DNA from: Candidatus Latescibacterota bacterium | Lineage (GTDB): Bacteria > Latescibacterota > UBA2968 | DNA length: 64,000 bases | Direction of reading: 5' to 3' | Assembly: GCA_965208125.1 (NCBI GenBank) | Contig: OZ242320.1 | Span: 4,160,001 to 4,224,000, forward strand | Part shown: piece by piece, positions 2,875 to 62,347 of the stretch | Layout: every line of letters starts with the position of its first letter | How positions within the stretch are numbered: the stretch's first letter is position 1 | Notes under the pieces: model-generated | What the model was told of the DNA's origin: nothing | The model's database searches: none | What the model saw: the letters and a program-made list of their open reading frames with translations, nothing else | Program-made: the position numbers and the translations under genes

Positions 2875-3852
2875 TCAAAGGTAATCGCTGACGTCCATTT
2901 CCGGATACGCGTTTTTTATCAGCTCAACGGAGGTGGGCGTGTACATTGCGTCACCGGGTTTCGGCCAGCCGAAGAGACTTCGAACCCTCGATGTCGTTTT
3001 TCCCAAAAAGGGTTTCAAGCGCCGAATCACTTCAGCTTCCCTTTTTCCGGTTGATGTCCAGGGCATGGTGTCTCTGCGTCCTATTGAAAAGAAGATGACG
3101 GCACGTTGCCTGTCCTTGTCTGCAAAAGGTTGTGCTGCGTGTGGCGTGTGTCCACTGTAGAAGAGTACGCTGCCAGCTTTCCCTGTGATTGAGACGGGTT
3201 CTTGCGCGTGAAGAATTTTGCGGATATCGGCAAAGCGGTAAGAGTGGGGTACCTTGCGGATGTCGCCAAAGCCCAGGCCGTCGTCTTCAATCACGCGCAA
3301 GATATCGCCCATTTTGTCGTGTACTCCTGGGACCAACCGAACAGGCGCGCAATCTGCATCGATGTCGTCCAGAAAGACCCAGGCCTGAATATGGCCATAC
3401 CGCTGCCAATCCGGGTGAGGGGGTATAAAGGGTTTGGCCCAATCCAGGTGAAATTCGATTTCCGGCTTCGTTGGGGCTTTTCTATCTATTCTGCCGTTTC
3501 GGATATAGACGTAACCATGGTGGTAGTGTATATCAGGCGTATCCAGAAGCTGTTCCAGAGCATCCAGGAAAGGATCGTGTTCCAGAACCTGGTCAATGAC
3601 CTCTACCCCTGTTGGAATGTCACAGAACTCCGATCTGGGGCCGGCCATACCGAGACCTGCTCCAGGCAGTCTCAGATCATTCTCAAGGTCGGGATTGGCC
3701 TTTATTTCTGCAATGAACTCGGAAAAAGATTTTCCATAAGCGTTTTGTTCCGTGGCCTCAAGTACCGCTGACAATTGGCTGGTTGAGAATAGATCCGGGA
3801 CTAAGAGATAGCCCTCTTGTTGATAAGACTCACACTGTTGTGGTGTCAACAT
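2875..3852 (-). CDS. PhyH-family Fe(II)/2OG dioxygenase
   Basis: MLTPQQ..YQQEGYL start, HLD and distal H (TPHAA), RLVPGVH. Confidence 0.85.
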   Translation of the reverse strand: MLTPQQCESYQQEGYLLVPDLFSTSQLSAVLEATEQNAYGKSFSEFIAEIKANPDLENDLRLPGAGLGMAGPRSEFCDIPTGVEVIDQVLEHDPFLDALEQLLDTPDIHYHHGYVYIRNGRIDRKAPTKPEIEFHLDWAKPFIPPHPDWQRYGHIQAWVFLDDIDADCAPVRLVPGVHDKMGDILRVIEDDGLGFGDIRKVPHSYRFADIRKILHAQEPVSITGKAGSVLFYSGHTPHAAQPFADKDRQRAVIFFSIGRRDTMPWTSTGKREAEVIRRLKPFLGKTTSRVRSLFGWPKPGDAMYTPTSVELIKNAYPEMDVSDYL

Positions 3853-3876
3853 TTTCGATTTCCTTTCATAAATCGT

Positions 3877-5484
3877 CTAAATTTCATCGTCATCCAGAGC
3901 GCGCTGTCCTTCAAACGGTCCCCAGTGAATACGCGCTCTGGTTTTTCTATCGCTCTTGTAAATCTCTGGGTCATAATCCGGGTTTGCCTTCGGGAATCGC
4001 GCCTTGACCAGTTCGAGATAGCGCATCATCTCGTCGTAGAGTTTCTGGTGTGTTTCCGGATTTTGCTTTGCAATATTGGTGACCTCGCCAATGTCGCCAG
4101 ATAGGTCGAACAACATTGGAATATCTGGTCGTTCGTAAAAATGGATCACTTTGGACGAACCAGAAATAATGACCGAATGTGGCATAGAATTCCGATAATG
4201 AGGATAATGAAAATAGAGATAGCGATTTAGAAAGGCCTCGTCCGGTTCTTTTCCCGCCATGTAATCGGCGAGGCTGACACCGTCGATGTTCTGCAATTTT
4301 TCCGAGTCGCCCCCAGCCCAATCAACGAAGGTGGGTAAGAAATCATAGTTGATCACATTGCCGGTAAAAACTGAGCCGGATTTGACTCCTGGGCCCTTGA
4401 CAATCATAGGTACCCGGATGCCTCCATCCCACAACCACCACTTTGTTGCGTGTAACGGTTGCTTGTAGTCGGGTATGATTTCGACTTCTTCGTGTCGGTA
4501 GCCGTTGTCACCCACTACGATGACATAGGTGTTATCCTCGATTCCCAGTTCCCTGAGCTTGTCGAGCACCGCGCCGATCCGACCATCCAGGTCCTCACCC
4601 ATCCCCAACCAGATTGCGGGATCATCTCCCCGGTTGACTGTTTCGGGATGTTTATTGTTTTTCTTATACCACTCCTGCACCAGTGGGTGATTCACATACT
4701 TTTCACGCGTTTTATCCAGGCATTCATAACCCGCATGCATGGCATAATGAGATATCTGGAGATAAAAGGGATTGTTTTTTTCTACCTGTTCTTCCATAAA
4801 GCCAATTGCCTTTTCAGTAATGCTGAACATCAATTTGGGATCGACCATATCTTTTGGCAGGCGCCTGGGCGTCCGCTCGCCCCTCTCCAGGCCGTATTTC
4901 AGCGTATTGCCGGGATTATTATCGGTAGCACCATCGTGTAATACGTAGCCCGCCTTTGCAGGATCGCCTCTCATGTGCCATTTGCCAATGTGGGCGCTGA
5001 CATAACCCAGAGGTTTGAGAGCTTTGGGAATGGTGACAGCGTCTTCGTCGAGTTCTCGGTCGGACACGTTCGGAACCAGCGGGAAATGCCGATATTCCCT
5101 TTTCGTGTCGTAGTAGGGCTCTCTTGCCCCCAGATATACCGTGAAACCACTGTGTGGAGCAGACTGCCCTGTCTGTACGCACACACGAGCAGGTGCACAT
5201 TGGGGCGCTCCATAGGCATTGCGAAACTTCATGCCCTCATTTGCCAGCTTTTGGATGTTCGGCATTTGCAAGACCGGCATCAGGGAGTTCTCCATGGTGT
5301 CATCCATGGCAACCGGTGATCCGTTCCAGGCCCAGTCATCGATGTAAAACATGACAATGTTGGGCCTGGATTGCGCCTGAGATCCCGATTGCGTGTTGGA
5401 TTTGGCCTGTGCGGCCTGACTGCGAACGGCGAAGGTCCCAATCACAATCGCAATCCATAGGATGAGTTTTATAAAAAGGATCAT
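3877..5484 (-). CDS. Secreted sulfatase (Cys-type)
   Basis: Start moved to ATG 5484, which follows AGGAGG. Signal peptide, [24 protein letters not shown]. Confidence 0.9.
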
Positions 5485-5504
5485 ATATTCCTCCTGTTGG
5501 ACAT
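5481..5504 (-). other. Bridging mini-ORF MSNRRNI*
   Basis: Its ATG overlaps the upstream stop (TGATG) and follows GGAGG. Its stop overlaps the downstream start (ATGA). Confidence 0.5.
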
Positions 5505-8317
5505 CAGTTGTTGCTCCTCCAAACAATTTTTCTTTTTTTTCCTTCGACCTCGCGAAACACGGCCAGTCTTCTGGATACAGTGATTCCGAGTTTATAAGTG
5601 CCCAGATCAGACACCTTTTTGGATTCCCAAAGTACCACTTCCGGATGGTCGGGCGTACCGCGATAGGTCACCAATTGCCCCTTTTCGAAAGCAGCATAAT
5701 GGAAGCCGCCGTCAGGGTCCTTTGATCGAGATCGCCAAATCGCGTCACCACTCCTGCCTGGAGCACCTCGACGAAGTACCAGCTTTCCATTATCATGCAT
5801 CTTCAAATAGCATTCCAGGCGGGGGAATACGCGGACATCTCCGATCATAAACCGCTCACCTTCGTTCAGTATTACTTGATGAATCTCATCCCGCCAGTCT
5901 GCCGCGCTGTTTTCCGAGACGTCGCCCACGGCAATCTGAATTTCACGCTGACTGGATATACCGGTTTTGTCCTCTGCCACAGCCTCCAAATGATATATCC
6001 CGGGCTTCAGTGCTTTCAGGAGTTCATCGCTCGAACTGCTCCAAATCTGCGGTTTGGTTGCAGTGAGAAGCAGGCCGTTGAGATAAAGCTTCACCTCCCG
6101 AATGCCATCTCCATCGGTCGCATCTACTTCCACCCGGAGTTCAGTTTCTGCCGGAAAACGCGCGCCGTCCTTCAGGTTTGTAAAACGCACTTCCGGGAAG
6201 TCTCCTTCCCGCTGTACGGTGATGACCTCTTTTTCCACTTCCGCCAGAGTGCGGTTCCAGTCCATAAAGTGGGTCCGGGCCATCAATTGCGTTTTGTATT
6301 GGGGCGTGAGAATCGAGGCATAGGTCTTCCATTCCTCTACTGCATCTTCTAAATGGGCCACGGCTTCATCATTAAACTGTTTCCGCTGGCGATCTTCGCG
6401 AAATATCGCCAGTTTGGCTGCACCGCGCATTTTGTCGGCATAATAACGGCCGAGATAGGCCATGCTTTCAATATCGTTCAGCGTTTCCCGCAATTCCACG
6501 TTATCGCCTATCTGTGCCCACAACGCCGGGAGTGCTTTTAGTGCAGTAATTGCATATTCGTCCAGGTTATCCGCCACCTGCAACGGCGTGATACCCTTCA
6601 GGTTTTTGCCCGCAAGAAAAGCCTTTGCCCACTCTGTTACGGAGTGAATGCCCGATCCACGCATTGGGTCCCGATCAAAATAGTAGTCATCCACAGTCAG
6701 AAAACCCTGGCGCTGCATACACCCTTCCGGCGCGAAGTTTCCATCGGTGCCAGACCAGACGGATCTGTTAAGCTGGGGGATAATCTCGGAAGTTGACTCC
6801 CAGGCATCGTAAAGCAGCCTGGCATCTACACCGGGAAAACGATGCTTCAGGACAGCTTCCCAATAGTCCCGATCGAGTGACGAATTATAAGATAGCTGCC
6901 CCCACAGCCGGAAACGATACCAGTGCTTATCAATCTCCAACCGCCCGGACATTTCTGGATTCCTGGCGATAAACTCGCGGCCCCAGACATAGCCGTCCGA
7001 GCCTGTGTAAAAGCCGGGCGAATGGTCGTGTGGCATCTCTTTAATAAACTCGCGCACAAAATCTGGGCTGCCCCAACGGTGCAGGAAGATATCGTCATTG
7101 CGCAAGTTGAGCCAGACTTTGAAATTATCCAGCCAGCCATCATTTACGATGCGCCTTTCCCATTCCTGCGGCCTTCTCATCGAATAGATATGCGCGACCG
7201 CATACTTCACACTGGTTTCCAGGGTGCCACCCGTATAATTTTTAAAGGCATCTGTAACGTAGTAATGGTCTGTTACGTGTCTGCGAAAAATAAAGCGAAT
7301 TTTGCGATCGGGTTGCTGCTCTAATACGTCCATAACACCTCGGCCGTAGGTGTCGAATATAAAGTTTTCGATCGCATGCATGCCTTTAATTACATTGTCC
7401 GCGTTTTCGCCAGCCGTGACGCCAATCCCCGCTATCTGCGGGTAGGTCAGCAATGCCTGGCGCACACTCTTTCGCATATAATCGACAGTGACGGGGTTGG
7501 TCTGATCCTGCGTTATGCCGTGTTTTCCAGTCGCGCCAAAAGTGAAGACGTTCCAGTGAAAAAGATAAATTTCAATCCCGCGATCCTCCGCGTATTGGAA
7601 CACCCGCTGCCAATGCGCAATTTTTTCTTCGATAGAGATCTTTTTTACCAGCTTCAGGGTGCCCGGTTTGTCAAAATCCACATCCTGCCACTTGTTTTTA
7701 GTCTGCGGATAAATATCGACGCCGATGCGATAGACATCATCCAGCGCGACTTCGGGGTATTCCTCTATCTTGATAATGGAAGGATATGGATGGGTCGTCC
7801 ACAGGCTCAGCACGTTGTAGCGATAGCGCGCGAGGTCATCGAGATAGGCTTGCCAGAATTCAAAGTCCCAGACCGTTTCAATATTGTTCTGTGCCGAATC
7901 GCCCGTGTCGTCGTAGGATGGGGTGCGCGCATCCAATGGGATATTAAATTTGATCCCGCGCTTTTTCACAAAGGGGGCGCGTTTCTGATCCTCAATCGGA
8001 AGGCCGAGGCGCAAAAGGTCGGCTACTTCGAGACCGCCATACATCGCCCCGGTTGCATCCGTACCGATAATCTCTATCCCGGTCGGTTCAACAGACCGAA
8101 TTTGAAATGTTTCGGGTGATGTCTCATCCGGCTTAATGGTTAACGAAACATGCAGATTTTCCCGCTCCGTCTCTTTTAATGCACCTTCCAGTTCCTGCGC
8201 CGCGAATACCAACTGCGGAATCTTTGCATCGTATTCGACCACAGCCGCGAGGCGACCCGGTATGAGAATGATCAAGACGAATATCAAATAGAGGAATGAA
8301 CACGGTCTCTTTTTCAT
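5504..8317 (-). CDS. Secreted multidomain glycoside-hydrolase-like protein (GH67/115/20-like N-terminus, Ig-like domain, bulb-type-lectin-like C-terminus)
   Basis: Signal peptide; [14 protein letters not shown]; [19 protein letters not shown]; Ig-like [23 protein letters not shown]; lectin-like [15 protein letters not shown] and GQLVTY..LWES. Confidence 0.65.
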
Positions 8318-8349
8318 TATTTTAATCCTCTAATCCTCGAAATAGACAT
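8317..8349 (-). other. Bridging mini-ORF MSISRIRGLK*
   Basis: TGATG overlap with the DegT stop and TAATG overlap with the next start; spans the intergenic gap exactly. Confidence 0.5.
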
Positions 8350-9623
8350 CAACTCGTCTTCAATTCATCAATATTATCCCGCAATTTTTGGAACGCTTCG
8401 AGAATGAGGTCCATGTTTTCGCGCGGTCCGAGAAGAATGCGGTGCGTGAGATCAAGGGCTTCGGTTTCGTGAATGCGCTCGGCTTCGGGACAATAGACTT
8501 TGGTGTAGTCGATGGGATCCGCCTGGTACAACGGGCAGCGGATTGGACAGCCTGTTTCTCCCCATTTGCCACTGGCAAACATGCTAAATTGATAGAGGGG
8601 CTTTGTCGGGCCAATGCCACAGGGCACGCCTTCGGCCTGGAGCGCTTTGCGGAATCGTTCGCGGTGGATGCCTTCAAATTCTTCGGAGATAAATTTGAAG
8701 TGCCAGCGATAGGGGTTCCAGCGGGTGACGCGCTCGTCAATGTCGAGGCCAGTGAGTCCGGGAATAGATTCCATTCCTTTGTGGAGGTACTTGAGATTTT
8801 CCCACCGAATTTCTGCCTGTTCTTCGAGGCGGGTGAGTGCGATCAGGCCGATGGCCGCTTCAAATTCGCCCAGTCTTAAGGTTGTGGCAGGCCAGGTGAA
8901 GTTCATACTTTCTTCGCCTCTGTCTCGGCCTGCATGATGATACCGAAAGGCTTTTTCGTACAGGCTTTCGTCTTTGGTCATCACCACGCCGCCTTCGCCT
9001 ATGGCGAGTACTTTGCCGGGCATGCAGGAGAATCCAGCAATGTCGGCTTGAGATCCCACGCCTTTGCCTCTCCATTGCCCGCCGTGCGCATGAGAACAGT
9101 CACTGACCAGGCCGATGTTGTGTTTGCGGCAGATGTCACCTAAAGCATCTGTATCGCAGGGCATGCCGCCCATATCTACGGCAACCACTGCCCGTGTGCG
9201 CGGCGTGATGAGGGCTTCTACGCTTTTGGGATCAATGGTGTAGTTACGCGGGTCGATGTCGGCAAAGATGGGGATGCCATTGCAAATCATGATGCAGGAA
9301 GCAGATGCGATATAAGTTGATGCAGGGACAATGACTTCACAGCCAGCTTCGACGCCGAGGGCGCGCAAGCAGGTTTCGAGTGCTGTGGTGCCTGTGGAGA
9401 CAGCAAGGGCGTATTTGCTGTCGTGAAATTCTGCAAAGGCCCGTTCAAATGCGTAGAGTTTGCTGTCGCCATGGTTGTAATAGTCAAAGCCACTGCGCCC
9501 CCATTTGTGACTGCGAAGGACGCCGACAACGGCTTTTTCTTCGCGTTCATCGTGAACCGGCCAGGGTTGGCGCAGGTCTCTATTAACCGTTTTTGAACCA
9601 CCGTTGATTGCGAGTTCAGGCAT
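8349..9623 (-). CDS. DegT/DnrJ/EryC1/StrS PLP aminotransferase
   Basis: Start moved to MPELAINGG at 9623. STGTTAL, DCSHAHG, FSCMPGKVLAIGEGG. Confidence 0.9.
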   Translation of the reverse strand: MPELAINGGSKTVNRDLRQPWPVHDEREEKAVVGVLRSHKWGRSGFDYYNHGDSKLYAFERAFAEFHDSKYALAVSTGTTALETCLRALGVEAGCEVIVPASTYIASASCIMICNGIPIFADIDPRNYTIDPKSVEALITPRTRAVVAVDMGGMPCDTDALGDICRKHNIGLVSDCSHAHGGQWRGKGVGSQADIAGFSCMPGKVLAIGEGGVVMTKDESLYEKAFRYHHAGRDRGEESMNFTWPATTLRLGEFEAAIGLIALTRLEEQAEIRWENLKYLHKGMESIPGLTGLDIDERVTRWNPYRWHFKFISEEFEGIHRERFRKALQAEGVPCGIGPTKPLYQFSMFASGKWGETGCPIRCPLYQADPIDYTKVYCPEAERIHETEALDLTHRILLGPRENMDLILEAFQKLRDNIDELKTS

Positions 9624-10860
9624 TGGAGCGTTCCTTGTGGGATGAATTATCGTGCAGTTTTGTGAGTAAGGTTTGCGTTTCGTCAATCCAGCGTTCACCT
9701 GTGCCGGGAACAACGCAAGCGCGGTTGTATTCGAGTGGGTCATCTGGGTAGGGGGTAACGCCGTAGCCACCGAAATTATACGCGCGGCGATTTGGCACAT
9801 AGCCACATGACCCCTGGGAATAGCCCATGACAATCGTGCGCGCAAAGGGGGATGACGATTGGGTGGATAGAGATAGCTCGATGAAGGGTTCACCCTGCCA
9901 GAAGACGAGTGCCAGGTCGTCGCTTATGCGGATGGCGGGGATTTCGACTCGGATGGTTTTTTCGTTTGTGTATCGGTTGGGAAGTGTGTCTTGCCAGCGC
10001 TCTACTTTAAGTGAAAGATTTTTTTCTGGCGTTGCTTGTGTCCAGGCAACGATGGCTTCTCTGGCGAGTGCTTTGCCCATTTCTTCGACCGTATCATAAT
10101 TGTCTCTGGGTTCCTGAATCGGAAGTATGTTGCCACATGCCCCTTGTAGAAATATTGAGAAGGGTACAGATGTGCCTGCTTCAAAGTGGTGACAGGTTTC
10201 GCCGGGATATTCGGCGGTGAAGAGACGATTGGCGGTCATCATGATGACGGGATGAGCGGCAAAGTGGATTGCGGTCGCGATGGGTTGGCCTTGGGGTGTG
10301 TCGAATCGCAGGACAGTGACTGCGGGGTCAACAGGGCCGTTGGGCAGTTTTTGGGGATTGAGGTTAAACGATTTAAAGCTTCCGTCGGGCAATATCTGGC
10401 GTCTGTTATAGGCGAGGTCGGTGTTGACAGCGCCCGTTGAGAGTGTGGTGGGTTTGAGATTGGTTAGAGATTCGACAGCAGCCTCGACAACCTGCTTTCT
10501 TATGTGAACAATCGCATCATCTTCGGGGCTTCCGCCAAAGTAATAGATGCATTCTGGACCACTGTGATTGTGGGTGCTACACAGGATCAGGTTTTCGGGC
10601 GGAAGATCGGATTGTGCGGCAAAAGCATCGCGCATGGCATCGACGTCGATCCACTGAAAGCTCAGGAGATCTGCCGAGCAAATGACGATAGTAGTCGTAT
10701 CGTCAGATAGTGCCAGTGCTTTGACGTATAATGGGTCATGGATGCCTTCTGCAATGCGAGGTTGCATGGGCGAGCGGTTTACAGGGAAAGCACCCATGGC
10801 TGATCCCGTAGATGGTGTGATGTCTCGTTGTGCTGTACCAATTTTTATTATATCTGCCAA
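9616..10860 (-). CDS. Neutral/alkaline ceramidase-family amidohydrolase
   Basis: DITP, HDPLYVKAL, STHNHSGP, FAAHP, LQGACGN, GEPF, GYVP. Confidence 0.8.
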   Translation of the reverse strand: MADIIKIGTAQRDITPSTGSAMGAFPVNRSPMQPRIAEGIHDPLYVKALALSDDTTTIVICSADLLSFQWIDVDAMRDAFAAQSDLPPENLILCSTHNHSGPECIYYFGGSPEDDAIVHIRKQVVEAAVESLTNLKPTTLSTGAVNTDLAYNRRQILPDGSFKSFNLNPQKLPNGPVDPAVTVLRFDTPQGQPIATAIHFAAHPVIMMTANRLFTAEYPGETCHHFEAGTSVPFSIFLQGACGNILPIQEPRDNYDTVEEMGKALAREAIVAWTQATPEKNLSLKVERWQDTLPNRYTNEKTIRVEIPAIRISDDLALVFWQGEPFIELSLSTQSSSPFARTIVMGYSQGSCGYVPNRRAYNFGGYGVTPYPDDPLEYNRACVVPGTGERWIDETQTLLTKLHDNSSHKERSNA

Positions 10861-10941
10861 GGCTCAGATGTCCTGTTTTGAATGTTCAGGAAACCCACAC
10901 TGTTTTGTATTCGAACCATCTTCCTTCTGTTGAAACGCTAC

Positions 10942-18189: not shown

Positions 18190-20418
<2,229 letters not shown>

Positions 20419-42302: not shown

Positions 42303-42308
42303 GGTCGG

Positions 42309-42338
42309 AATATACGGTCACATCGGGGATTATGTCAA
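42309..42338 (-). promoter_or_regulatory. Sigma70-type promoter of the candidate sRNA
   Basis: Minus strand TTGACA-N18-TATATT. Confidence 0.65.
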
Positions 42339-42573
42339 CGAAAATCAAATTTGGAAGGAGGGATAACATATCTGATTTGATGTCTGACTGTAAAGCTGCT
42401 GCATAGGCAAGCCGGGTCTGCGGCCACCTGGGAACCGAAGCGTCGCATATTCTGATGATATATACATATTACCTGCCGGTAAGATGCTTAGAGTTGCAGG
42501 AATGATGTGCTGAAGAACCCCATAACGATTTGCTAATTGAAGAACAACCGGCATTACCTTATTGAGGAAAATA

Positions 42574-43581
42574 ATGACAGAGGAAAGACAATATCAACAA
42601 GGACCGAAACGCCGCATTCTTTCTATTGACGGTGGGGGTATTCTCGGCACCTTTCCGGCGGCCTTTCTTGCAGAACTGGAACAGCATCTCGAACATCCAA
42701 TTGGTGCGTATTTCGACCTGATTGCCGGTACATCAACCGGCGGGATTCTCGCCCTCGGACTGGCTATGGGCCTTCCTGCCTCAAAACTTCTTGACCTTTA
42801 CGAAAAACGCGGGCCTGAAGTCTTCGGCCAGAATCATAGTGCGCTACCAGGATTTGTCTATAGAACACTTCGTGGTATCCAGTGGCTCTATCGACGGAAA
42901 TACGATTCTAATGCGCTGTGTGGTGCCCTTCAAGACGTCTTCGGCAACAAGCGCATCGGCGAAGCAACGACCCGCCTTATGGTTCCTGCATGGAATCCGG
43001 TTGAGCGGAGCGTTTATATCTATAAGACAGCCCATCATCCCCGTCTGAAGAATGATTATCGATCCCCGGCCATTGATGCCGCCCTTGCCACATCCGCTGC
43101 GCCAACCTATTTCCAACACCACATCACGCAGCACGATGTTGGGCTCCTTGATGGCGGGATCTGGGCGAACAACCCGATCGGCATTGCCGCGGTTGAAGCC
43201 ATAACCATGCTGGACTGGCCAAGAGATTCCCTTCACATCCTGAGCTTGGGTTGCCTGGCAGAGACCTACACCATTCTAAAATGGGCCGGAATCGGAACCC
43301 TTGGTCGGAATATCCTGCGGTTGTTCATGGATGGTCAGTCGCACGGTGCGATGGGCATTGCCAAACTAATCACCGGCCACGAACACGATCGACGTGCCAT
43401 ATATCGGATCGATCACACCGTCCCCAAGGACACTTACAAGATGGACGACACGCGGGTTATCCAAGAATTGAAAGGTCTCGGTCACACGAAAGCTCGTGAT
43501 CGACAACCCGTTCTTGAACCCGTTTTCTTTGATCAGCCGGCGGATGAATTCACGCCGGTTTACCAACTTAAGAAGGAGTAA
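42574..43581 (+). CDS. CBASS patatin-like phospholipase effector (CapV/CapE-like)
   Basis: DGGGILG, GTSTG (catalytic Ser), SAAPTYF, DGG.WANNP; TAATG-coupled to the CD-NTase. Confidence 0.9.
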   Translation: MTEERQYQQGPKRRILSIDGGGILGTFPAAFLAELEQHLEHPIGAYFDLIAGTSTGGILALGLAMGLPASKLLDLYEKRGPEVFGQNHSALPGFVYRTLRGIQWLYRRKYDSNALCGALQDVFGNKRIGEATTRLMVPAWNPVERSVYIYKTAHHPRLKNDYRSPAIDAALATSAAPTYFQHHITQHDVGLLDGGIWANNPIGIAAVEAITMLDWPRDSLHILSLGCLAETYTILKWAGIGTLGRNILRLFMDGQSHGAMGIAKLITGHEHDRRAIYRIDHTVPKDTYKMDDTRVIQELKGLGHTKARDRQPVLEPVFFDQPADEFTPVYQLKKE

Positions 43582-44789
43582 TGATGATGGTTGATACAAA
43601 TAGTTATTCAAGATTTTTAGAGAAAGTTGCGGAAACTATCGACATTCCGCCGAGCAAATATCAAGACGCGGTTGATCGCTATCAGGTTGTTGGCAAATAT
43701 CTTGAGGATGGAGAGTATCCGGGTTGCACCGGTGAACTCAGCATTTATCCGCAGGGGTCCTTTCGCCTTGGCACTGTCGTCAGGCCCATAAGAGACGGTA
43801 TCGAAGCCAGCTACGACATTGATCTTGTGTGTGAATTGCCGATAGAAAAGTACCGGACAAGTCCCCGATCCGTGAAATTGATGGTTGGTGATCGCCTCAA
43901 GGAACACGGCACATACCGCAAGTTGCTGGATGAGGAAGGCAAACGGTGCTGGACACTTGAGTATGCCGAGCAGGATGAGATTGGGTTTCACCTTGACGTC
44001 CTACCGTCGATTCCTGACCCCCGATCTCCTTTCGATACCGCCATCGCTATTACGAACAAAAAAGAAAATGTTTATACGTGGTCGGCCAGCGATCCCAAAG
44101 GCTACGGCCTTTGGTTTGACCGCCAGAACCAAGCAGCATTTGAACTCGCACGAACCGACCAGAAGCGGGCCATTCTGACGCAGAGTTCCCATATCTATGC
44201 GAGCATTGACGATGTTCCGGATGCGCTCGTCCGTACGCCACTCCAGCGTTCTATCCAACTCATGAAGCGCCACCGGGATATAATGTTCGACAATGAACAG
44301 AACAACAAACACGCACCTATCTCGATCATCATCACTACGCTCGCCGCGCAGTTCTACCAAAACGAGCCTGACATCTACTCGGCACTCTACAGTATTGTCA
44401 CTCAGCTACACGCACATGCAGTTCTCGTTGAAAACGGAACTGTAAATCGAAGCCTGGCCCCCCACAGTCCCATTAAGCGCAGTCCTGATGGTGGGTGGTA
44501 TATTGGTAATCCGGTTAATCCCGAAGAGAATTTCGCCGACCGTTGGCATGAGGATAATCATGCGCGTGCAAGGGCCTTTTTCCATTGGGTTGCGGCGTTG
44601 AAAGAAGCCCTCTTCGATATTTTGGAAGAGCCACACCTCAATGTTCTGCGCGAACGGCTTTCTGCGACGCTCGGTGCGGCGGTTGCCTCCAAACATTTTG
44701 ACCTGATCGCATCTGGCGTGGCTGCGGAGAGTAGCGTTCCGAGAATCCATATCTCAAAGTCGACGTCGACGAGGCCGTGGAGAGCATAA
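43581..44789 (+). CDS. CBASS cGAS/DncV-like nucleotidyltransferase (CD-NTase)
   Basis: YPQGSFRLGTVVRP, YDIDLV, FHLDVLP, SDPKGY..WF, PISIIITTL, NPVNPEENFADRW; flexible tail ending RPWRA. Confidence 0.92.
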   Translation: MMMVDTNSYSRFLEKVAETIDIPPSKYQDAVDRYQVVGKYLEDGEYPGCTGELSIYPQGSFRLGTVVRPIRDGIEASYDIDLVCELPIEKYRTSPRSVKLMVGDRLKEHGTYRKLLDEEGKRCWTLEYAEQDEIGFHLDVLPSIPDPRSPFDTAIAITNKKENVYTWSASDPKGYGLWFDRQNQAAFELARTDQKRAILTQSSHIYASIDDVPDALVRTPLQRSIQLMKRHRDIMFDNEQNNKHAPISIIITTLAAQFYQNEPDIYSALYSIVTQLHAHAVLVENGTVNRSLAPHSPIKRSPDGGWYIGNPVNPEENFADRWHEDNHARARAFFHWVAALKEALFDILEEPHLNVLRERLSATLGAAVASKHFDLIASGVAAESSVPRIHISKSTSTRPWRA

Positions 44790-45524
44790 ATGAAAGAAGA
44801 ACTTGTTGCCGAGATTGCCGAATTGCAATGTGTACACCGTGGGCTGACGGCAATCACGAGAGCAGAAAACGCGACAATATTATCAGGTCCATTGCCGTTT
44901 GAGGCATCGGCTAATGGACATAGCACAATCGTAGAGTGCTTCGAAATTGAACTCACCATCCCCGATATTTACCCGGAGAATCTTCCGTACGTCCGTGAAA
45001 CCGGTGGGAAGATCGATAGCGATTATGATCACCTGAACGGGGACGGTACGTTATGCCTTGGGATCCCTATCGAAAAGCACCGCGTCTTCTGGCAACAACC
45101 CTCACTCTTGGGATTTGTAAACCGTCTCCTCATTCCGTACTTCTTCGGATACAGCCACTACAAGAAATATGGTACGCACCCCTTTGGTGAGGCAGAACAC
45201 GGTGCAGTAGGCATCGTTCAGCACTATATGGATACTCTTGAATTGGTCGACGAACGAGCGGCATTGGCTGTCATTGCCTTCCTTATTGAGCATGGTTACC
45301 GGGGACACCATTCCTGTCCGTGCGGCAGCGGCAAAAAAGTTCGCAAATGCCACGGTCAAGCTCTGCGAGACCTCCACAAGCTACACACGGCACGTACCTT
45401 ACAGAACGATTTTGTTGCGTTACTTGATGTTTGTATTGCTATGATCAAGTCGAAAAATCTACAAATTCCTGAGCCGCTTCACCGTCAAATTCGGCGCATT
45501 CTCAACAAAATGATTAGACGGTGA
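44790..45524 (+). CDS. CBASS ancillary prokaryotic E2-like protein with SEC-C zinc motif
   Basis: IPDIYP..LP.V, HLNGDGTLCL (E2 catalytic Cys context), PFGE..HG, CPCGSGKKVRKCH. Confidence 0.85.
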   Translation: MKEELVAEIAELQCVHRGLTAITRAENATILSGPLPFEASANGHSTIVECFEIELTIPDIYPENLPYVRETGGKIDSDYDHLNGDGTLCLGIPIEKHRVFWQQPSLLGFVNRLLIPYFFGYSHYKKYGTHPFGEAEHGAVGIVQHYMDTLELVDERAALAVIAFLIEHGYRGHHSCPCGSGKKVRKCHGQALRDLHKLHTARTLQNDFVALLDVCIAMIKSKNLQIPEPLHRQIRRILNKMIRR

Positions 45525-45701
45525 ATGGCTTGTTGAAACTAATTTGGAAAATTTCGTCCCTGTCTATAACGCATACCTGCCTTGTCGAGTCCGCAAGAAG
45601 GTGAACAGCTTGAGATACAGCCAGTTGTAAACCATCCATAGTATAGGCTATTACAGTAATGCACTCTTGTCGATATTTAGACCAAATAAGAGGGACCTTG
45701 C

Positions 45702-45893
45702 ATGTCTGATCAATTGGATAAAAACTGGCGTGACAACATTGCACTCGTCACGAAGACCGCGGCAAGCCTTGTGCCCGTTATTGGTGGGCCGCTGGCCGAA
45801 CTGATTACCGAAGCAATTCCTCTATACAGGCCGATGAGTTTGTCTTGTCGGTCCATCCCTTTACCCCTATTTTCAAGGGTGCTCTTTACTTGA
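45702..45893 (+). pseudogene. N-terminal stub of a hypothetical defence-island protein
   Basis: GAGGG RBS, then AASLVPVIGGPLAELITEAIP, after which the sequence stops looking protein-like. Confidence 0.45.
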
Positions 45894-45976
45894 ATTTACA
45901 TCATAACTCCGATCTGAATGACGACGGCGACCCTGATCCCAATTTTGCAATAGTAAAGAAAAAAAAGGACAGAACG

Positions 45977-46291
45977 ATGATTGACCAAACAATCCTAGAC
46001 AACATCATCAGTCGTATTGTGGAAGTGGCTGATCCCGAGCGGATTATCCTTTTTGGGTCTGCTGCCCGAGGTGACATGAACCGCCATAGCGATGTCGATC
46101 TGCTCGTTATCGCGGATGTCGATGATCGCCTCGCCGCAATGGCGCAAATTCACCGGAGATTGCGCGGAAGGCATCTGGCAGTTGATGTGATCGTGGTTAC
46201 GCCAGCAGATGTCGCCCGATACGGCAAGAGCCATGCCTTAATCATTAAGCCGGCATTGCAGGAAGGAAAGGTGGTGTATGAAGCAGCCTGA
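45977..46291 (+). CDS. MNT (minimal nucleotidyltransferase) antitoxin
   Basis: PERIILFGSAARG..SDVDLLVI..VDVIV..EGKVVYE; 104 aa from ATG 45977. Confidence 0.9.
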   Translation: MIDQTILDNIISRIVEVADPERIILFGSAARGDMNRHSDVDLLVIADVDDRLAAMAQIHRRLRGRHLAVDVIVVTPADVARYGKSHALIIKPALQEGKVVYEAA

Positions 46292-46361
46292 ACGCTTTCC
46301 ACCGGACGACCCGCGCGAGTGGATCAATCGTGCCCGGAGCTACCTTTTTACAGAACTTTAA
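46278..46361 (+). pseudogene. Truncated HEPN toxin
   Basis: MKQPERFPPDDPREWINRARSYLFTEL* overlaps the MNT end; it is a HEPN-type N-terminus that stops after 27 aa. Confidence 0.75.
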
Positions 46362-46378
46362 GGACGCTATCGTCTGGC

Positions 46379-46430
46379 AAAAAGAAAACGGGTAAAGAAT
46401 ATTATAATTCTCTACCCGTTCTTTTTTCTT
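46379..46430. terminator. Bidirectional terminator
   Basis: aacgggtaaagaat/attctctacccgtt stem (one mismatch), flanked by A- and T-tracts, between convergent genes. Confidence 0.7.
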
Positions 46431-46591
46431 AAACCGATACCCTCACGTCAATCAGGGCTCAACTCAATATTGAGCCGACAGCCTACGGTCACACTATATT
46501 TCGCCAATCATATCCTTGACCTTACATACACCATACTCGCTTATCTTCCAGGTCAATCCAAGTCGTGAACCGATCTTTATCGGTGTATTAC

Positions 46592-47494
46592 TCAGTTCGG
46601 CGCTTGCGCAAAAGACGTGATAGATGACGTGTACGCATGGCCTCTTGCCAGTCTTCGCTTCTCGAGACTACTACGAAGTTCATCATACTCCCAATTCCCG
46701 CTCTCGGCCTCCTCACGCCACTTCATGTTGTATGTCTCTCGCTTGCAAACGTCCAGGTGTTTCGGGGCCAGCGTGAGCCACGTCTTCCCTGAAGTAACAC
46801 TTCCGAAGCCGTTAAAGCATGGGGAGTGCAGGTAGAGCAAGTTCTTCGCCATGTACGTCAGATAGTCTTCTGAGCTGTACCTGGCTCCATTGTAACTCAG
46901 TTCGTTGTTGCAGAAGATGGTTTTGTGTCGGCAAAGTCGGTCCCTGGTCTCCCATGGGCTCAGGATCAGTCCTTCAGAGTCACATAGAAACGCATTGTAC
47001 GAGGGGTCAACCATCACCCACTTCGAGCGAGAAGTACACCAAACCACCGTAACTACATGATTGTCATAGTCGTATGGATTCAGAGGATTCAGAGACACTA
47101 TTCGGCTCTGCAACCCCAGAGATAGGCAGGCCTCTGTTAGCACGATAGACAGCATGTAGCAGTTGATGCCATAGTCCTCACCTTTGCCGAACGAATAGCT
47201 CAGAAGTCCCGAAGCGTTCATGGGCAGTACTTTGCAGACCTCGGGCAGCGCTTTGCTTATGTCACCTCTGTGGCATATGCCTTCAGACATCCACTGCATT
47301 AAGTTCAGGATTTTAGACCAGTCGTCTCCACCTCCTGCAACCTGATCAAGTCTATATGCTTCGCGCAGACGCTCGAGTTCAGGATGGGAGAGTTCATATT
47401 GGAAGCCAGGTGCCAATTCGTCTGGTAAGGAATCAAACTCGTCAAACAAGCGTAAGAGCCCGCAGTTTAGTCTAAACTGATAATTCATCGTCAC
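46592..47494 (-). CDS. Transglutaminase-like (Cys-His-Asp) protein
   Basis: GINCYML, NHVV, KWVMVDPSYN. Confidence 0.8.
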   Translation of the reverse strand: MTMNYQFRLNCGLLRLFDEFDSLPDELAPGFQYELSHPELERLREAYRLDQVAGGGDDWSKILNLMQWMSEGICHRGDISKALPEVCKVLPMNASGLLSYSFGKGEDYGINCYMLSIVLTEACLSLGLQSRIVSLNPLNPYDYDNHVVTVVWCTSRSKWVMVDPSYNAFLCDSEGLILSPWETRDRLCRHKTIFCNNELSYNGARYSSEDYLTYMAKNLLYLHSPCFNGFGSVTSGKTWLTLAPKHLDVCKRETYNMKWREEAESGNWEYDELRSSLEKRRLARGHAYTSSITSFAQAPN

Positions 47495-47798
47495 TACCTC
47501 AAGATATGTTGATTCTCTTTTCCCATTTCATCTACCTACGTTATTCACGCACCAGTTCAGTTATACCATAAATATACAGGTACTAAACGAAAGTGTGCAA
47601 TCGTATTTTCGGAGAAGGAATTTGTAAACGGGGCTTAAAGACCTAAGATAGAATCAATCTTTTGGATCCTCGCATTGAGACATTTTGAAGGGATTAAATT
47701 TTGCAATAATCTTTATACGCCAAAATGCCATTGCAAACCCCTGTTTTTTCGACTAAATTGCAGATAATTGTAAATATTGAAAGACAAAGGTGCATAAT

Positions 47799-47900
47799 AT
47801 GACCAAACGCAGACTGCCCATCGGCATTCAGACCTTCCGCGAGATGCGAAAGGAAAACTGCTACTATGTCGATAAAACGGCCCACATGCGGCGGCTTTAA
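47799..47900 (+). pseudogene. N-terminal stub of an AAA-ATPase_like / PD-(D/E)xK protein
   Basis: MTKRRLPIGIQTFREMRKENCYYVDKTAHMRRL* carries the characteristic LPIGIQTF..YYVDKT start and stops before Walker A. Confidence 0.8.
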
Positions 47901-51073: not shown

Positions 51074-51889
51074 ATGGGACAAGCATTGACAGAGCGCGAG
51101 ATCGAAGCCGTCGTCCGGGAGGTCACAGACGAAGAAGTGGCCTTCTACCAGGAATACGGGTGGGTCATGATGAAGCAACTCGTAGATCCGGAGTTTGTCA
51201 CGGAGCTTCTATCTGTCGGCCAGGATTGGCTGGACCGCTACGGCGAAGACAAGGGCGGCAGACGGGCTGTCGGTCTGGTACTGCAGGAAGAGGCTGAGCC
51301 GTTCCGCTCGTTCATGTTCAGTGAGCGCATGTCAAAAAACGCGATGCGACTCGTGAATAGGAAGCGGCTCAGGGGCGTGGATATCCCACTTCGCTATCGC
51401 GCTGATGTCCTCAGAGAAAAGCCCCCGGGGGCAGCCAGAACCCATTATCATCAGGACTCGGCTCAGCACGGTTCTGATCGCGTGGGCGAACTCCAGTTCT
51501 GGCTTGCGCTGGTGGAAGTGACACCGGAGATGAGCGCCATGCGATTTGTCAGTCGCTCACATCGCGAAGGGCCGCTCGGCTCGGTAGGCGGCGATGGCCA
51601 AGGCGACCTGCTCGAGCAATTTCCAAATCTGACGTCTGTGCTGGAGCTTTCTCCGCCGTTCCATTACCAGCCTGGTGACTGCACTGTGCATCACGGGTAC
51701 ACAATCCATGGCGCTCCGGTCAACAGCACCGACAAGTCGCGCTGGTCATACCTCTTCTCATACTCGCCTTCCGACACCCGATACTGGAACGGCACAGCGG
51801 ACAACTGGGGCAACGAGCGAAAGCATCTGAGTGACCGGGATAATCCAACGGTCTATTTTCCAATAGAAAGGAACAACAATGTCAATTGA
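51074..51889 (+). CDS. PhyH-family dioxygenase, paralog B (in-frame alternative start 51044)
   Basis: Closely similar at DNA level to 48065-48859, including the leader; HQD, IHGAPVNSTDKSR. Confidence 0.88.
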   Translation: MGQALTEREIEAVVREVTDEEVAFYQEYGWVMMKQLVDPEFVTELLSVGQDWLDRYGEDKGGRRAVGLVLQEEAEPFRSFMFSERMSKNAMRLVNRKRLRGVDIPLRYRADVLREKPPGAARTHYHQDSAQHGSDRVGELQFWLALVEVTPEMSAMRFVSRSHREGPLGSVGGDGQGDLLEQFPNLTSVLELSPPFHYQPGDCTVHHGYTIHGAPVNSTDKSRWSYLFSYSPSDTRYWNGTADNWGNERKHLSDRDNPTVYFPIERNNNVN

Positions 51890-51953
51890 GCAATTACAAG
51901 AAAATGGCCTAACCGGTCCTTTGAGATCCAAACCAGAGAGAGGTCAGTTATGA
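51879..51953 (+). other. Bridging mini-ORF MSIEQLQENGLTGPLRSKPERGQL*
   Basis: AAAGGA RBS, PhyH-like N-terminus; starts inside the upstream gene end and finishes with an ATGA overlap on the next start. Confidence 0.5.
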
Positions 51954-53105: not shown

Positions 53106-54290
53106 ATGCCCCCAACTCAGAAATTTGAAGAGCGCGTCGTTCGCGTGGAGAAACCTTCCGCTCATTTCACGCTGTTGAGAAACGAAAAGGGTGATTTTCT
53201 GGGCGTATCGGAAGGCAAGATATCCGTCTTTGACCACGCCGACGACAAAGCGATCTGGAAAGAAGAAGGCGACACCTATTGCCATGTGGTGTCAGGGGTG
53301 ACTCTCGATGTGTCTGCCGCGAATAACGAAGGTGTGCATCTCGCCCTGAATGGAAAATCACTGGGCGAAGACGGCTCCGAATCGTCCGTACCGGGGCGTT
53401 TTCAGCCGGGTCACGGTCCTGCCCATCTTCCGTCCGAATACCTCCAGCAAATCCGCGAGAACGGATGGGTCTGCCTTCCGAGCATCCTGTCGCCCCACGC
53501 GATCAAAGAACTGCAAAGGGTGAGTTGCACTGGCAAGTGGGACCATGAAGAATTAGACAGAAGCCTGCCGACCCTCACGCAGTCTGTGGAAGTGTCGAGA
53601 GCCGCAACCGAGCCTGTATCTCTCTGGGTGATGCGGGAGTATATGCAGTGTCGGGAAATTCGGCTGGCTCACAGGCCCGGTTTCGCCGTCGTGGCTCCGG
53701 ACGACGGTGAACGCCAAGTGGGGGGGTGGCATTCGGATTATCCCTACCTCTGGGGGATCGCCAGGAATTCCTCCGATGGTAATCGGATCGTACCGCACAA
53801 TGCGCTAAATCTCGTTCTTGGCGTTCAGCGAAATTTATGTGTGACCGAATTTAAGAGTGAAAATGGCGCAACCTGTTTCAAACTCGGATCGCATACGTTT
53901 GGGCAAGGACCTCCTCCAGAATGGGGGAGTGGGAATACGTACAGGGAGGAGGGATCTCGCCAGGCAAAAGGCCTCCCTTATACAGGCTCCGAGGCAGATG
54001 TCGTTGAGGCGCCGGCGGGCAGCTACGTCATCTATGATGCCCGAACCTGGCATCGGGCAGGCGTGAACCGCACGGACAAAAAGCGGGCGGCGATGCTTCA
54101 GTCAGTCGTTCCCATGTATATCATGCCTTTTATGGAGACCGCTCGTCCCTACAAGGAATTCCTTGCGAGCCCTCTGGCGAGTCAACTTACGGAGCGGGAG
54201 CATATCGAGCTGGAATCCCTTCTGGTAAGCCGAATTGATGGGCCTCAAGGGCGTTTGGCGATCACTATGGATGAGGAGCTTTCCAGATGA
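53106..54290 (+). CDS. PhyH-family dioxygenase with an extra N-terminal beta-rich domain
   Basis: Start at ATG 53106 after AAGGAG; GGWHSD, ENGATCFKLGSH, WHRAGVN; paralog of 24248-25315. Confidence 0.82.
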   Translation: MPPTQKFEERVVRVEKPSAHFTLLRNEKGDFLGVSEGKISVFDHADDKAIWKEEGDTYCHVVSGVTLDVSAANNEGVHLALNGKSLGEDGSESSVPGRFQPGHGPAHLPSEYLQQIRENGWVCLPSILSPHAIKELQRVSCTGKWDHEELDRSLPTLTQSVEVSRAATEPVSLWVMREYMQCREIRLAHRPGFAVVAPDDGERQVGGWHSDYPYLWGIARNSSDGNRIVPHNALNLVLGVQRNLCVTEFKSENGATCFKLGSHTFGQGPPPEWGSGNTYREEGSRQAKGLPYTGSEADVVEAPAGSYVIYDARTWHRAGVNRTDKKRAAMLQSVVPMYIMPFMETARPYKEFLASPLASQLTEREHIELESLLVSRIDGPQGRLAITMDEELSR

Positions 54291-55051
54291 ACGAATACAA
54301 GACGCATTTTGATACCCCGGAAGATGCCTACTTCGGCTTTTTTGAAGCCGATGCATCCCAAAATGGAGATGCCTGGGCTGCCGTGATGAGCTATCCCCAT
54401 GTCCGCGTTGACGCATCGGGGCGGACCGCCTACTACGACACGGCACGGGACTACGCGGATAATGCCGACTGGACGTCGAGAGTAGCCACGGGTTGGGTCC
54501 TGACGAGGGGGCGAGACCCCGTCCGGCTGCACGAATCTCCCAACAAGGTCCACCTGGTAGGCGGGTGGACGCGATACAATGCAGACGATGATCCCATTCT
54601 GTGGAACCGCGTCACTTATATTGTCACCAAACCCGCTGATTCGTGGGGGATCCAGGCGCGGTTTGCGCTCGGTACTTATTACGACGGGAGGGACGACGAA
54701 ACAGCTATCGCCCAGGCTACCGAGACAGCAATTAATCAGGTGCGACGCTATTGCGATGCACTGGACAAAAGCGATGGCGATGCCTGCGCCAGCCTCTGTC
54801 GTTTTCCGCTGATTGAGGTCGGCGTTGGTGCGGTGACACGGATCGAAGATGGCACCAAACTGGCGCAACAGGTCAACGAAAGAACCACATCGGTCAGCAA
54901 TAGAGAAGTCGAGGCAGCACAATCTGGTCCTGAAGGCGTCCTTGTGGCAGTGACTGCTGACGATGTCTCTGGCAACAGTGAGGAATCCATCGTGGTGGTC
55001 AGCAGATCGGCTGACGCATGGCAGATCGCTGGCATTTCGAGAATGCTGTAA
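54287..55051 (+). CDS. Tandem NTF2/SnoaL-like domain protein
   Basis: Two ~125-aa repeats (FFEADASQNGDAWAAVMSYPH / YCDALDKSDGDACASLCRFPL), each ending in W.I. Confidence 0.6.
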   Translation: MNEYKTHFDTPEDAYFGFFEADASQNGDAWAAVMSYPHVRVDASGRTAYYDTARDYADNADWTSRVATGWVLTRGRDPVRLHESPNKVHLVGGWTRYNADDDPILWNRVTYIVTKPADSWGIQARFALGTYYDGRDDETAIAQATETAINQVRRYCDALDKSDGDACASLCRFPLIEVGVGAVTRIEDGTKLAQQVNERTTSVSNREVEAAQSGPEGVLVAVTADDVSGNSEESIVVVSRSADAWQIAGISRML

Positions 55052-55075
55052 AGCCCCGACACAAGGAGGAATATC

Positions 55076-61056: not shown

Positions 61057-61136
61057 AGAAAGCTCCAGGAAAAATTGTGGGAAGAAATCGTTTTCAAGAT
61101 CTCAGATCACAATCCAAACAAAGATTTCTACCTTCA

Positions 61137-62264
61137 TCATTGTACCTTCTCGCCTACTTTCCCGCGGTCTTCCTGCCGCTCCAGCGGCAGTTCTTGCATA
61201 AATGTCCACTGACGGTCCCCCAGCTTTTGAAGCTGCGATTCGTCGAGTTCCATCCCTAAACCCGGACCTTTAGGCACGAGAAGGTAGCCATTTTCGTACT
61301 GGACCCGGTGTTTGACAACGTCGTCAATGTAGAGTTGCGCGCCAGCCGCATCGCCGGGGTAATCGAGGTTGGGTACCGATGCGCCCAGATGCGCCTGCGC
61401 GGAGGTCCCAATAGAAAGTTCCTGAGTTGTGCCAATCAAGGTGGAGATTCCGGTGGCCTGTGCTATGGCGAAGATCTGGCGCGATCGTTTGATGCCCTGG
61501 TGGCAGGTCGCAATATTGAAGATGTCGACAGCCTGTCCTTCCGCGAAAGCAATGGCCTGGGTCTCGTCGCTGACATGCTCACTGACCGGGAACCGGATAC
61601 GCTCACGCACCTTTGCTTTGCCCGGGATGTCGGGTGCGGGACTTTCAACCAGGATCGGCTCGACCCACTGCAGACGCTCAACGGCGGCTACGCACGACTT
61701 CCAATCAAGTCGGCGGCTGAAGTCCAGTGATTTAACTTTGAATCGATCTCCATAACGATCGCGACACTCATGTAAGATCTGATTGTCGATTTCGAGGTTT
61801 CCACCCACGTAAAATCGGAACAGGTCGAATCCCAGCTCGAGCATTCGACCGACTCGCTCGACGTTGGGTGCGACGTCCGCCTCTTCGAATTGTCGAAAGA
61901 TGGGGTAGCAGATTTTGTAGCGATCTCGGTAAGCACCTCCATAGAGGTCGTGAATTGGAATGCCCAAGCTCTTGGCCCGAAGGTCGTGAATCGCAATGTC
62001 CACACCTGCGCCAATCTGTCCCTTATATCCGTCGACGATCGGATCGATGGCGGATGGATCGGATGGATCGATTCCGATCAACGATTTCCGAAGTATATAC
62101 TCGAGATGGTTGATGTCGGGTATGTTTCGGATACTGAGGTCGGACATTTCGCCCGCACCGACTATACCATCGTCTGAGATGATACGGATGATAATGTGAG
62201 GACTAAGCGTACCGTTCTCTCGTCTTGTTCCGACTGCAAATAGATCGAGCTCTTTAATGGTCAA
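61137..62264 (-). CDS. Mandelate racemase / muconate-lactonizing-enzyme family protein
   Basis: DDGIVGAGE, DIAIHDL.AK, LDF, VESP, SEH, PKGPGLG. Confidence 0.85.
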   Translation of the reverse strand: MTIKELDLFAVGTRRENGTLSPHIIIRIISDDGIVGAGEMSDLSIRNIPDINHLEYILRKSLIGIDPSDPSAIDPIVDGYKGQIGAGVDIAIHDLRAKSLGIPIHDLYGGAYRDRYKICYPIFRQFEEADVAPNVERVGRMLELGFDLFRFYVGGNLEIDNQILHECRDRYGDRFKVKSLDFSRRLDWKSCVAAVERLQWVEPILVESPAPDIPGKAKVRERIRFPVSEHVSDETQAIAFAEGQAVDIFNIATCHQGIKRSRQIFAIAQATGISTLIGTTQELSIGTSAQAHLGASVPNLDYPGDAAGAQLYIDDVVKHRVQYENGYLLVPKGPGLGMELDESQLQKLGDRQWTFMQELPLERQEDRGKVGEKVQ

Positions 62265-62347
62265 AGCAGACTCCTTTCATCGACCGTCTCAGGAACACCA
62301 ATACGAATAGAGCGACCCTTGTCGGCATCTTAATTTCTCACACCAGT

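Follow-up and report, generated by a model that had tools for sequence, protein, structure and literature searches.

The engineered non-polar in-frame deletion scars of gene-knockout libraries join the start of a removed gene to its last codons. A natural counterpart was proposed in the original prediction for a stretch of 64,000 nucleotides from a Candidatus Latescibacterota bacterium (assembly GCA_965208125.1, contig OZ242320.1, positions 4,160,001 to 4,224,000; G000:C1:4160001-4224000 in our numbering; hereafter the window), in which seven tiny open reading frames (mini-ORFs) at gene junctions were taken as candidate in-frame deletion scars that keep mosaic operons translationally coupled. 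According to the analysis presented here, these mini-ORFs are probably incidental for the most part: two of the seven lie on relics of gene-sized deletions, and such deletions would be neutral events at microhomologies, filtered by selection on the neighbouring genes.

With respect to related phenomena, the excerpts of Price et al. 2006 (PMC1480536) attribute close and canonical gene spacings to neutral deletion, with changes in length that are not multiples of three, and, likewise in excerpt, deletional bias and the extinction of pseudogenes are described for bacterial genomes (PMC2916853, PMC2817411, PMC6054270) and polar effects for gene-knockout libraries (PMC8547470). An excerpted 2025 review (PMC12548453) holds that a coupled gene may receive its ribosomes from a short ORF, with MIRU repeats cited as a natural case. 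A narrow search of the literature gave, amongst the titles and abstracts listed, no account of natural scar ORFs under selection, which is not proof of their absence from print.

The remnants described below resemble pseudogene relics of deletional bias as depicted in the excerpts of PMC2916853, PMC2817411, PMC6054270 and PMC1480536, in that non-functional or dispensable genes shrink by deletion, short remnants persist between the genes that are kept, and spacings change by non-multiples of three. They differ from them in being tiny end-pieces of 3-22 codons in a co-directional array where nearly every gene is polymorphic within the genus, and some of them appear to keep a working ribosome-binding site and start codon. 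With termination-reinitiation coupled gene pairs the mini-ORFs share the canonical -4 or -1 overlap; such pairs, however, are defined by two translated genes, whereas here there is sequence geometry alone, which occurs at chance frequency and is poorly conserved. As in MIRU, there is a short ORF between genes that is proposed to do no more than pass ribosomes on to its downstream neighbour, but MIRU are multi-copy and apparently mobile repeats, whereas the spacers in question are single-copy, being either leftovers or plain spacers, and each of the five plain ones matches only itself in the genome. Finally, the scar of a 937-aa (amino acid) gene in two relatives, G015 and G013, consisting of the start and two codons joined to the last ~8 codons, is reminiscent of the engineered non-polar scars, from which the natural scars nevertheless differ by being mostly out of frame (one of five in frame) and by having no fixed layout.

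Mini-ORFs over lost PhyH and aldehyde dehydrogenase genes

The genome harbouring the window (G000) consists of a single contig of 5.75 Mb with 51% G + C, for which an iteratively trained, custom heuristic caller based on hexamer coding score, Shine-Dalgarno bins and start-codon type yielded 4334 genes at a coding density of 89%; gene starts rest on this heuristic. According to the Pfam matches of 50 long ORFs, the window is made up of long co-directional runs of genes for sulfatases, PhyH-type dioxygenases, Gfo/Idh/MocA oxidoreductases and xylose-isomerase-like TIM barrels, along with alpha-L-fucosidase, GH5 cellulase and enolase-superfamily genes. All seven mini-ORFs exist with the coordinates, strands and translations originally given (Table 1), and the overlaps are likewise as described, i.e., TGATG and ATGA at 5481-5504, TGATG and TAATG at 8317-8349, and ATGA at 51950-51953 and at 27375-27378. 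Stop-start overlaps of 4 or 1 nt thereby occur on either side of 5481-5504 and of 8317-8349, and on one side of 51879-51953 and of 27375-27431. Each mini-ORF sits in a spacer together with the Shine-Dalgarno-like site of the next gene.

Table 1. Mini-ORFs, gene remnants and repeats in the window
Feature	Positions	Strand	Peptide or sequence	Remarks
7-codon ORF	3846-3869	-	MKGNRKC	24-nt spacer; holds the Shine-Dalgarno site AAGGA of a PhyH gene
7-codon ORF	5481-5504	-	MSNRRNI	fills the 19-nt spacer from the 937-aa gene to a sulfatase gene; holds the sulfatase Shine-Dalgarno site AGGAGGA
9-nt direct repeat copy	5498-5506	-	TGATGTCCA	8/9 identical to the other copy; forms the mini-ORF start
937-aa secreted protein gene (Big_7 domain)	5504-8317	-		present or absent among congeners, four allelic states
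10-codon ORF	8317-8349	-	MSISRIRGLK	fills the 31-nt spacer from a DegT aminotransferase gene to the 937-aa gene; holds Shine-Dalgarno-like GAGGA
9-nt direct repeat copy	8343-8351	-	TGATGTCTA	other flank of the 937-aa gene
23-codon ORF	10848-10919	-	MVRIQNSVGFLNIQNRTSEPWQI	over the aldehyde dehydrogenase scar; reaches 13 nt into the next gene, which starts with TTG at 10860
Last 9 codons and stop of the lost aldehyde dehydrogenase gene	10886-10915	-	FEYKTVWVS, stop	end of the G004 gene aligned to the window spacer
18-codon ORF (MRQLLEKPG...)	27375-27431	+	MRQLLEKPGEGNKHAGRQ	over the 36-nt spacer before the alpha-L-fucosidase gene; holds Shine-Dalgarno-like GGAGAGGG
24-codon ORF	51879-51953	+	MSIEQLQENGLTGPLRSKPERGQL	deletion scar; stop overlaps the next start as ATGA
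First 14 codons of the lost 248-aa PhyH gene	51879-51922	+		Shine-Dalgarno site GAAAGGAA just upstream; remainder of the ORF is old spacer
Breakpoint overlap	51918-51922	+	CCTTT	left match ends at 51922, right match begins at 51918
24-codon ORF	62254-62328	-	MPTRVALFVLVFLRRSMKGVCFDH	83-nt spacer before an enolase-superfamily gene

At 51879-51953, three congeners (G015, G007 and G009) carry between the same two neighbours an intact gene for a 248-aa protein of the Pfam family PhyH (E = 1.7e-11), with a right flank that is 95-96% identical. The window retains the 5' end of this gene, identical to G009 in 44/44 nt, together with its Shine-Dalgarno site, and then jumps to a position 25 nt past the stop codon of the parent gene. 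The deletion comprises 733 nt, with parental breakpoints at CCTTTTGAG on the left and CCTTTGAG on the right that share the repeat CCTTT(T)GAG. Since 733 is not a multiple of three and the stub joins the start of the gene to spacer DNA and not to the end of the gene, it lacks the layout of an in-frame scar. Other states of decay can be found in G014, which has 22 codons and an out-of-frame 3' piece, and in G004, where only the last 39 codons are left, and the gene is wholly absent from G002, G011 and G013. In addition, environmental contigs, i.e., metatranscriptome contigs of relatives with 90-99% identity, which show alleles and neither transcription nor translation of G000, and whose gaps in coverage carry no meaning, include the intact PhyH allele, in which the loose end at 51922 runs on into the gene, as well as clean-absence joints leading from 51860/51862 to 51928/51939. 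Judged by these alignments, the mini-ORF is a leftover from the deletion of the PhyH gene, and in annotation such stubs should not be called genes. A reading of the mini-ORF and the next gene as one frameshifted gene was rejected, as relatives have the separate 248-aa gene at this place. As all compared genomes are metagenome-assembled, indels of 1-2 nt (homopolymer runs) are possibly assembly errors and have to be read with care.

It had also been stated that several of the mini-ORFs begin like real genes of the local families. In comparison with the proteome of the same genome this is true of 51879-51953 alone, the peptide of which matches in 13/14 residues with 43.1 bits as opposed to 24.8 for the best shuffle, while the three other peptides of sufficient length for the comparison score like shuffled ones. 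This single significant N-terminal match is due to an intact PhyH paralogue at 4955652-4956398 of G000, which is also the only other match of the stub in the genome.

At 10848-10919, G004 has at the same junction an insert of 1361 nt that encodes a 462-aa Aldedh protein (E = 3.6e-123). The spacer in the window keeps the region around the ribosome-binding site and start of this gene as well as its last nine codons with the stop; since the mini-ORF reads the remnant in a different frame, the old stop does not end it. Other remnants of the same gene comprise ~23 3' codons in G013 and an allele with a different left breakpoint in G006, and further deletions have removed 36 nt at the scar in G002 and G012 and 27 nt in G008. 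The 51-nt stretch 10870-10920 has no second copy in the G000 genome. The location of the aldehyde dehydrogenase gene itself varies: in G004 it has sulfatase and ceramidase-like genes as neighbours, in G001 it immediately precedes the 937-aa gene, and its 3' end is found again elsewhere in G002, G011, G012 and G013.

The proposal of deletion scars therefore holds for 51879-51953 and 10848-10919, for which congeners have the full-length parent at the same junction. For the spacers at 5481, 8317, 27375, 3846 and 62254 no parent could be found inside any gene of 10 syntenic congener regions or of the G000 genome, and the claim that each mini-ORF fuses the start of one lost gene to the end of another is not supported. 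Nor are the scars in frame, given that the PhyH deletion ends in a spacer, that the aldehyde dehydrogenase remnant is out of frame, and that amongst five single-gene scars keeping both ends the lost length is a multiple of three in only one.

Gene loss within the genus and the proposed selection for coupling

In a DNA search with 20 kb, the gene junctions compared by eye in the 48-64 kb part coincided with match boundaries in at least one congener. In the syntenic regions of 10 congeners each same-strand junction of each genome was then compared with every other, first over 42-92 kb per genome and, in a second round, over 11 congeneric regions of 68-212 kb with 1178 junctions and 4819 junction-by-genome comparisons; kin genomes are not independent in such counts, even though alleles were clustered. 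The second round gave 268 alleles that were at least 151 nt shorter than in a relative, of which 20 had no called gene in the extra DNA, 6 were artefacts and 242 contained genes. Coding remnants of at least 9 nt were found in 64 of these 242 alleles, derived from the 3' end of the lost gene in 41 cases, from its 5' end in 16 and from both in 7; the excess of 3' remnants may partly reflect uncertain start calls. In the other 178 the breakpoints lie in spacers and are not polarisable. Of 13 5'-scar calls from the first automatic round, five were dropped on inspection, three as tandem-duplication artefacts and two for too little remnant. Within the genus, the array of sulfatase, PhyH-dioxygenase, oxidoreductase and glycosidase genes shows gain or loss of single genes at almost every junction, and in the environmental contigs further gene-sized skips are found at the same places as the congener alleles. 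Short spacers in sulfatase/PhyH arrays can hence often be read as a history of gene loss, and the scars help to reconstruct the remodelling of polysaccharide-degradation clusters in uncultured Latescibacterota. Elsewhere in the array, a gene for a 254-aa protein without Pfam match (54287-55051) is precisely absent from G014 and G004, and one environmental contig has a 732-nt skip (54332 to 55065) that removes it.

Genome-wide, the frequency of bridging ORFs was determined for ORFs starting with ATG at 2108 same-strand junctions with gaps of 4-150 nt, and compared with mononucleotide shuffles, dinucleotide-preserving shuffles, shuffles with the last 14 nt kept fixed, and the antisense geometry. 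An ORF spanning the gap is present at 334 junctions, as compared to 295 ± 9.5, 311 ± 10 and 318 ± 8 in the three kinds of shuffles, respectively, and on the antisense strand of the same junctions, where the geometry is meaningless, there are 340. Doubly tight ORFs number 27 against 23.0 ± 3.0, 21.0 ± 2.8 and 23.0 ± 2.2, the value of 27 being reached by a fraction of 0.155, 0.027 and 0.053 of the shuffles, respectively. The comparison of doubly coupled ORFs with shuffled spacers, which the original prediction had put forward as its check, thus yields no clear excess (27 versus 21-23); there is a small excess at most, and as a class the mini-ORFs are statistically ordinary. For the 34 junctions of the window, the 10 bridging ORFs (5.4 expected) and 3 doubly tight ORFs (0.44 expected) correspond to binomial tails of P = 0.034 and P = 0.009, and of P = 0.07 for the two doubly tight ORFs originally described, the third one (23204-23248) resting on a custom start call. 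These P values are unremarkable because the window is one of ~90 in the genome and was picked for these very ORFs. Outside the window, a doubly coupled ORF of 47 codons from genome position 1118790 onward has a clear Gfo/Idh/MocA Rossmann N-terminus (INIAVIGAGNIATRHLENL) and is, by its sequence, probably a frameshifted or truncated oxidoreductase gene.

According to the alternative that survives best, the scars have been sieved by selection, the ribosome-binding site and start of the lost gene opening a short relay ORF that ends at or just past the next start and keeps the operon non-polar. Several observations favour this and thereby weigh against an incidental origin. The small excess has the same sign in every test, dinucleotide shuffles reaching the 27 doubly tight ORFs in 2.7% and the 334 bridging ORFs in 1.3% of cases. 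Among the 22 5'-scar alleles with a start codon, the scar ORF extends as far as the next start in 11, compared to 8.67 expected from how many frames are open from the breakpoint onwards to that start (Poisson-binomial P = 0.066), and 6/7 unforced 5'-scar cases bridge. In an earlier hand-curated set bridging was seen for 7/9, with 5.0 expected (P = 0.049, and 0.074 when the case from the original prediction itself is omitted). Moreover, three scars end exactly in ATGA or TTGA (G000, G002 and G008), the stub at 51879 retains a good Shine-Dalgarno site, and the ORF at 5481-5504 is kept in 7/7 aligned genomes as M[S/P]NRRNI within a nearly identical 19-nt spacer, and is present in G002 as well.

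However, none of the tests is convincing. Without the two in-frame fusions the best of them weakens to P about 0.13 by hand calculation (4/5 unforced cases bridge as compared to 2.3 expected), and four of the five scars are out of frame. Scar ORFs end anywhere between 280 nt before and more than 190 nt beyond the next start, which is not the pattern of tight coupling: some stop early (G004, G014 and G006) and others continue for 34 to more than 190 nt within the following gene (G017 and G009). The cases in G000 and G002, in turn, are not independent, as they share one downstream frame. Amongst the congeners the ATG codons and ends of the mini-ORFs drift, and the coupled arrangement is kept only at 5481-5504, exact bridging at 8317-8349 being seen in 2/10 genomes. 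Selection for junctions that maintain coupling, as originally proposed, is therefore not borne out by frequency, by the conservation of ATG, frame and end point, or by the scar alleles, and this alternative is considered unlikely. Should the weak excess of bridging be genuine, selection on polarity would be indicated for the erosion of operons; the scars would then be a natural equivalent of the engineered non-polar ones, and genes could leave long operons without silencing those downstream. As a caution, tiny ORFs overlapping both neighbours look designed, yet with short, purine-rich spacers they turn up as often as chance would have it.

Under the preferred reading, i.e., neutral deletion filtered by the neighbouring genes, deletions would arise by slippage or illegitimate recombination at direct repeats of 5-9 nt, and only those sparing the upstream stop codon and the downstream ribosome-binding site would persist. 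Under such a filter, the breakpoints that survive would lie mostly a short way inside the lost gene, near its two ends, and short end-pieces would be left behind. Whether a leftover start opens a bridging ORF would then be decided mainly by how little sequence remains before the next gene (19-56 nt where bridging occurs), over which two to three of the three frames are usually open; a dependence on selection for coupling is not apparent.

A second alternative, by which the extra genes of the relatives are recent insertions and the short alleles of G000 ancestral, could draw on the 178 alleles with breakpoints in spacers and on one extra piece in G015 that is an inserted IS605-family tnpB element (see below). 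However, the window cases hold coding sequence of the absent gene, namely the PhyH 5' end and the end of the aldehyde dehydrogenase gene, and different genomes hold several distinct remnants of the same gene. As insertion cannot create remnants of this kind, it is highly improbable as the general explanation.

The microhomology at the breakpoints is ordinary (5-9 nt), and the dedicated cassette-shuffling mechanism that had been suggested is not supported, as the boundaries share no motif. The word TGATGTCYA, which flanks the 937-aa gene, is not a general site (82 occurrences in the genome versus 84 expected), and no motif is enriched after stop codons of the genome except A-rich or Shine-Dalgarno-like words. 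Adjacent genes sharing the stop codon and 4 nt were found in 13/3417 pairs as compared to 7.4 ± 2.7, most of them tandem paralogues. With respect to integron-like cassettes, the motif tests gave no shared recombination site at the boundaries, no search for integrases having been made. A comparison of spacers with all coding sequences, intended as a genome-wide scar count, was rejected: 425/2409 spacers match another gene region against 46 in reversed controls, and the count is unusable because most matches derive from a short interspersed repeat and only a handful are true paralogue stubs. This repeat of ~35-40 nt occurs in both orientations in ~40 spacers (e.g., genome 954602-954715 and 1432434-1432526), translates as M[VL][LK][AS][AR]IQ... 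and overlaps the predicted starts of two genes. In G014 and G017, moreover, the spacers corresponding to 8317/8349, 30623/30642 and 12351/12372 of the window carry non-coding inserts of 180-240 nt. Two of these three have the same ends, with inverted termini (CTGAYGTTACGCAT ... ATGCGTAACRTCAG), and resemble miniature transposable elements; in the G000 genome, 4-9 matches exist for two of the inserts and none for the 182-nt one.

The polymorphic 937-aa gene and the remaining mini-ORFs

The two exact mini-ORFs flank the 937-aa gene. The 9-nt direct repeats at its flanks consist of a stop codon and the first six bases of each mini-ORF, which is why both peptides begin with MS. The gene is intact in G000, G004, G009, G014 and G020 and of full length also in G007 and G011, it is split over two contigs in G012, and broken copies can be found in G001, G006 and G019. 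In G002 it has been deleted exactly between the repeats TGATGTCTA and TGATGTCCA (TGATGTCYA), leaving a single hybrid copy that reads TGATGTCTA followed by ACAGGAGG. In G015 and G013 it is cut down to the ATG and two codons, joined out of frame to the last ~8 codons at an A-rich microhomology (AAAGA), which results in a 22-codon ORF overlapping the sulfatase gene by 14 nt. A further deletion in G008 and G017 has joined this scar ORF, in frame, to the sequence for the mature sulfatase (MPKKNC[LF]KEQQARPNIVMF...), and the signal peptide is gone. The scar ORF is thus reused as the new N-terminus of this sulfatase, the orthologue of window 3877-5484, and the loss of the signal peptide probably changes the location of the enzyme.

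At 8317-8349, the TGATG is kept in 10/10 genomes, the gap being 23, 31, 59 or 182 nt. The equivalents of the mini-ORF overlap the next start in two genomes, stop 2 nt short of it in three, are fused in frame to the next gene in two, and stop 18-156 nt short in the remaining three. The ATG of 27375-27431 is made up of the last Leu codon (TTA) and the stop (TGA) of the upstream gene; across six genomes, with spacers of 34 or 36 nt, the ORF extends beyond the next start by 17, 68 or more than 120 nt. The ATG of 3846-3869 is present in 5/11 collinear genomes and that of 62254-62328 in 3/5, the latter junction having a different downstream gene in seven others. At the fucosidase junction, G013, G009 and G004 carry scars of the upstream oxidoreductase gene (MKAKVAI...). 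At this same junction (window 27378/27415), G015 (L034:335-1459) has the IS605-family tnpB (OrfB_IS605 and Cas12f1-like TNB domains) inserted exactly between the two genes, and the same element has five copies in G000 with 89-94% identity.

A role of the mini-ORFs as functional small genes or as regulatory leader peptides, maintained for the product or for an attenuation-like control, might be suggested by MSNRRNI/MPNRRNI in 7/7 aligned genomes and by the constant TGATG at 8349, but is the least probable explanation of all, as these peptides of 7-24 residues vary by substitution and frameshift amongst ~90% identical genomes, their conserved bases are accounted for by a stop codon, a last sense codon or a Shine-Dalgarno site, and, the PhyH stub excepted, none of them matches the proteome of its own genome above the level of shuffles.

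Other elements of the window

The co-directional runs are broken at ~34300-47900 by a defence island that is absent from most congeners. It comprises genes for an N6/N4 DNA methylase (34775-37954), an AbiJ_NTD4 protein (37929-38843) and a ResIII helicase (38840-41929), a patatin phospholipase together with a DncV-like nucleotidyltransferase (42562-44789, CBASS-like), and another gene at 44790-45524. In G020, the methylase and helicase genes overlap and the AbiJ-like gene is lacking. The KatG catalase-peroxidase encoded at 18286-20418 is 80-94% identical to proteins in metagenome-assembled genomes labelled as Dehalococcoidia, Spirochaetia, Gammaproteobacteria, Gemmatimonadota, Binatia and others, a distribution which suggests either wide horizontal spread within one habitat or mislabelled bins.

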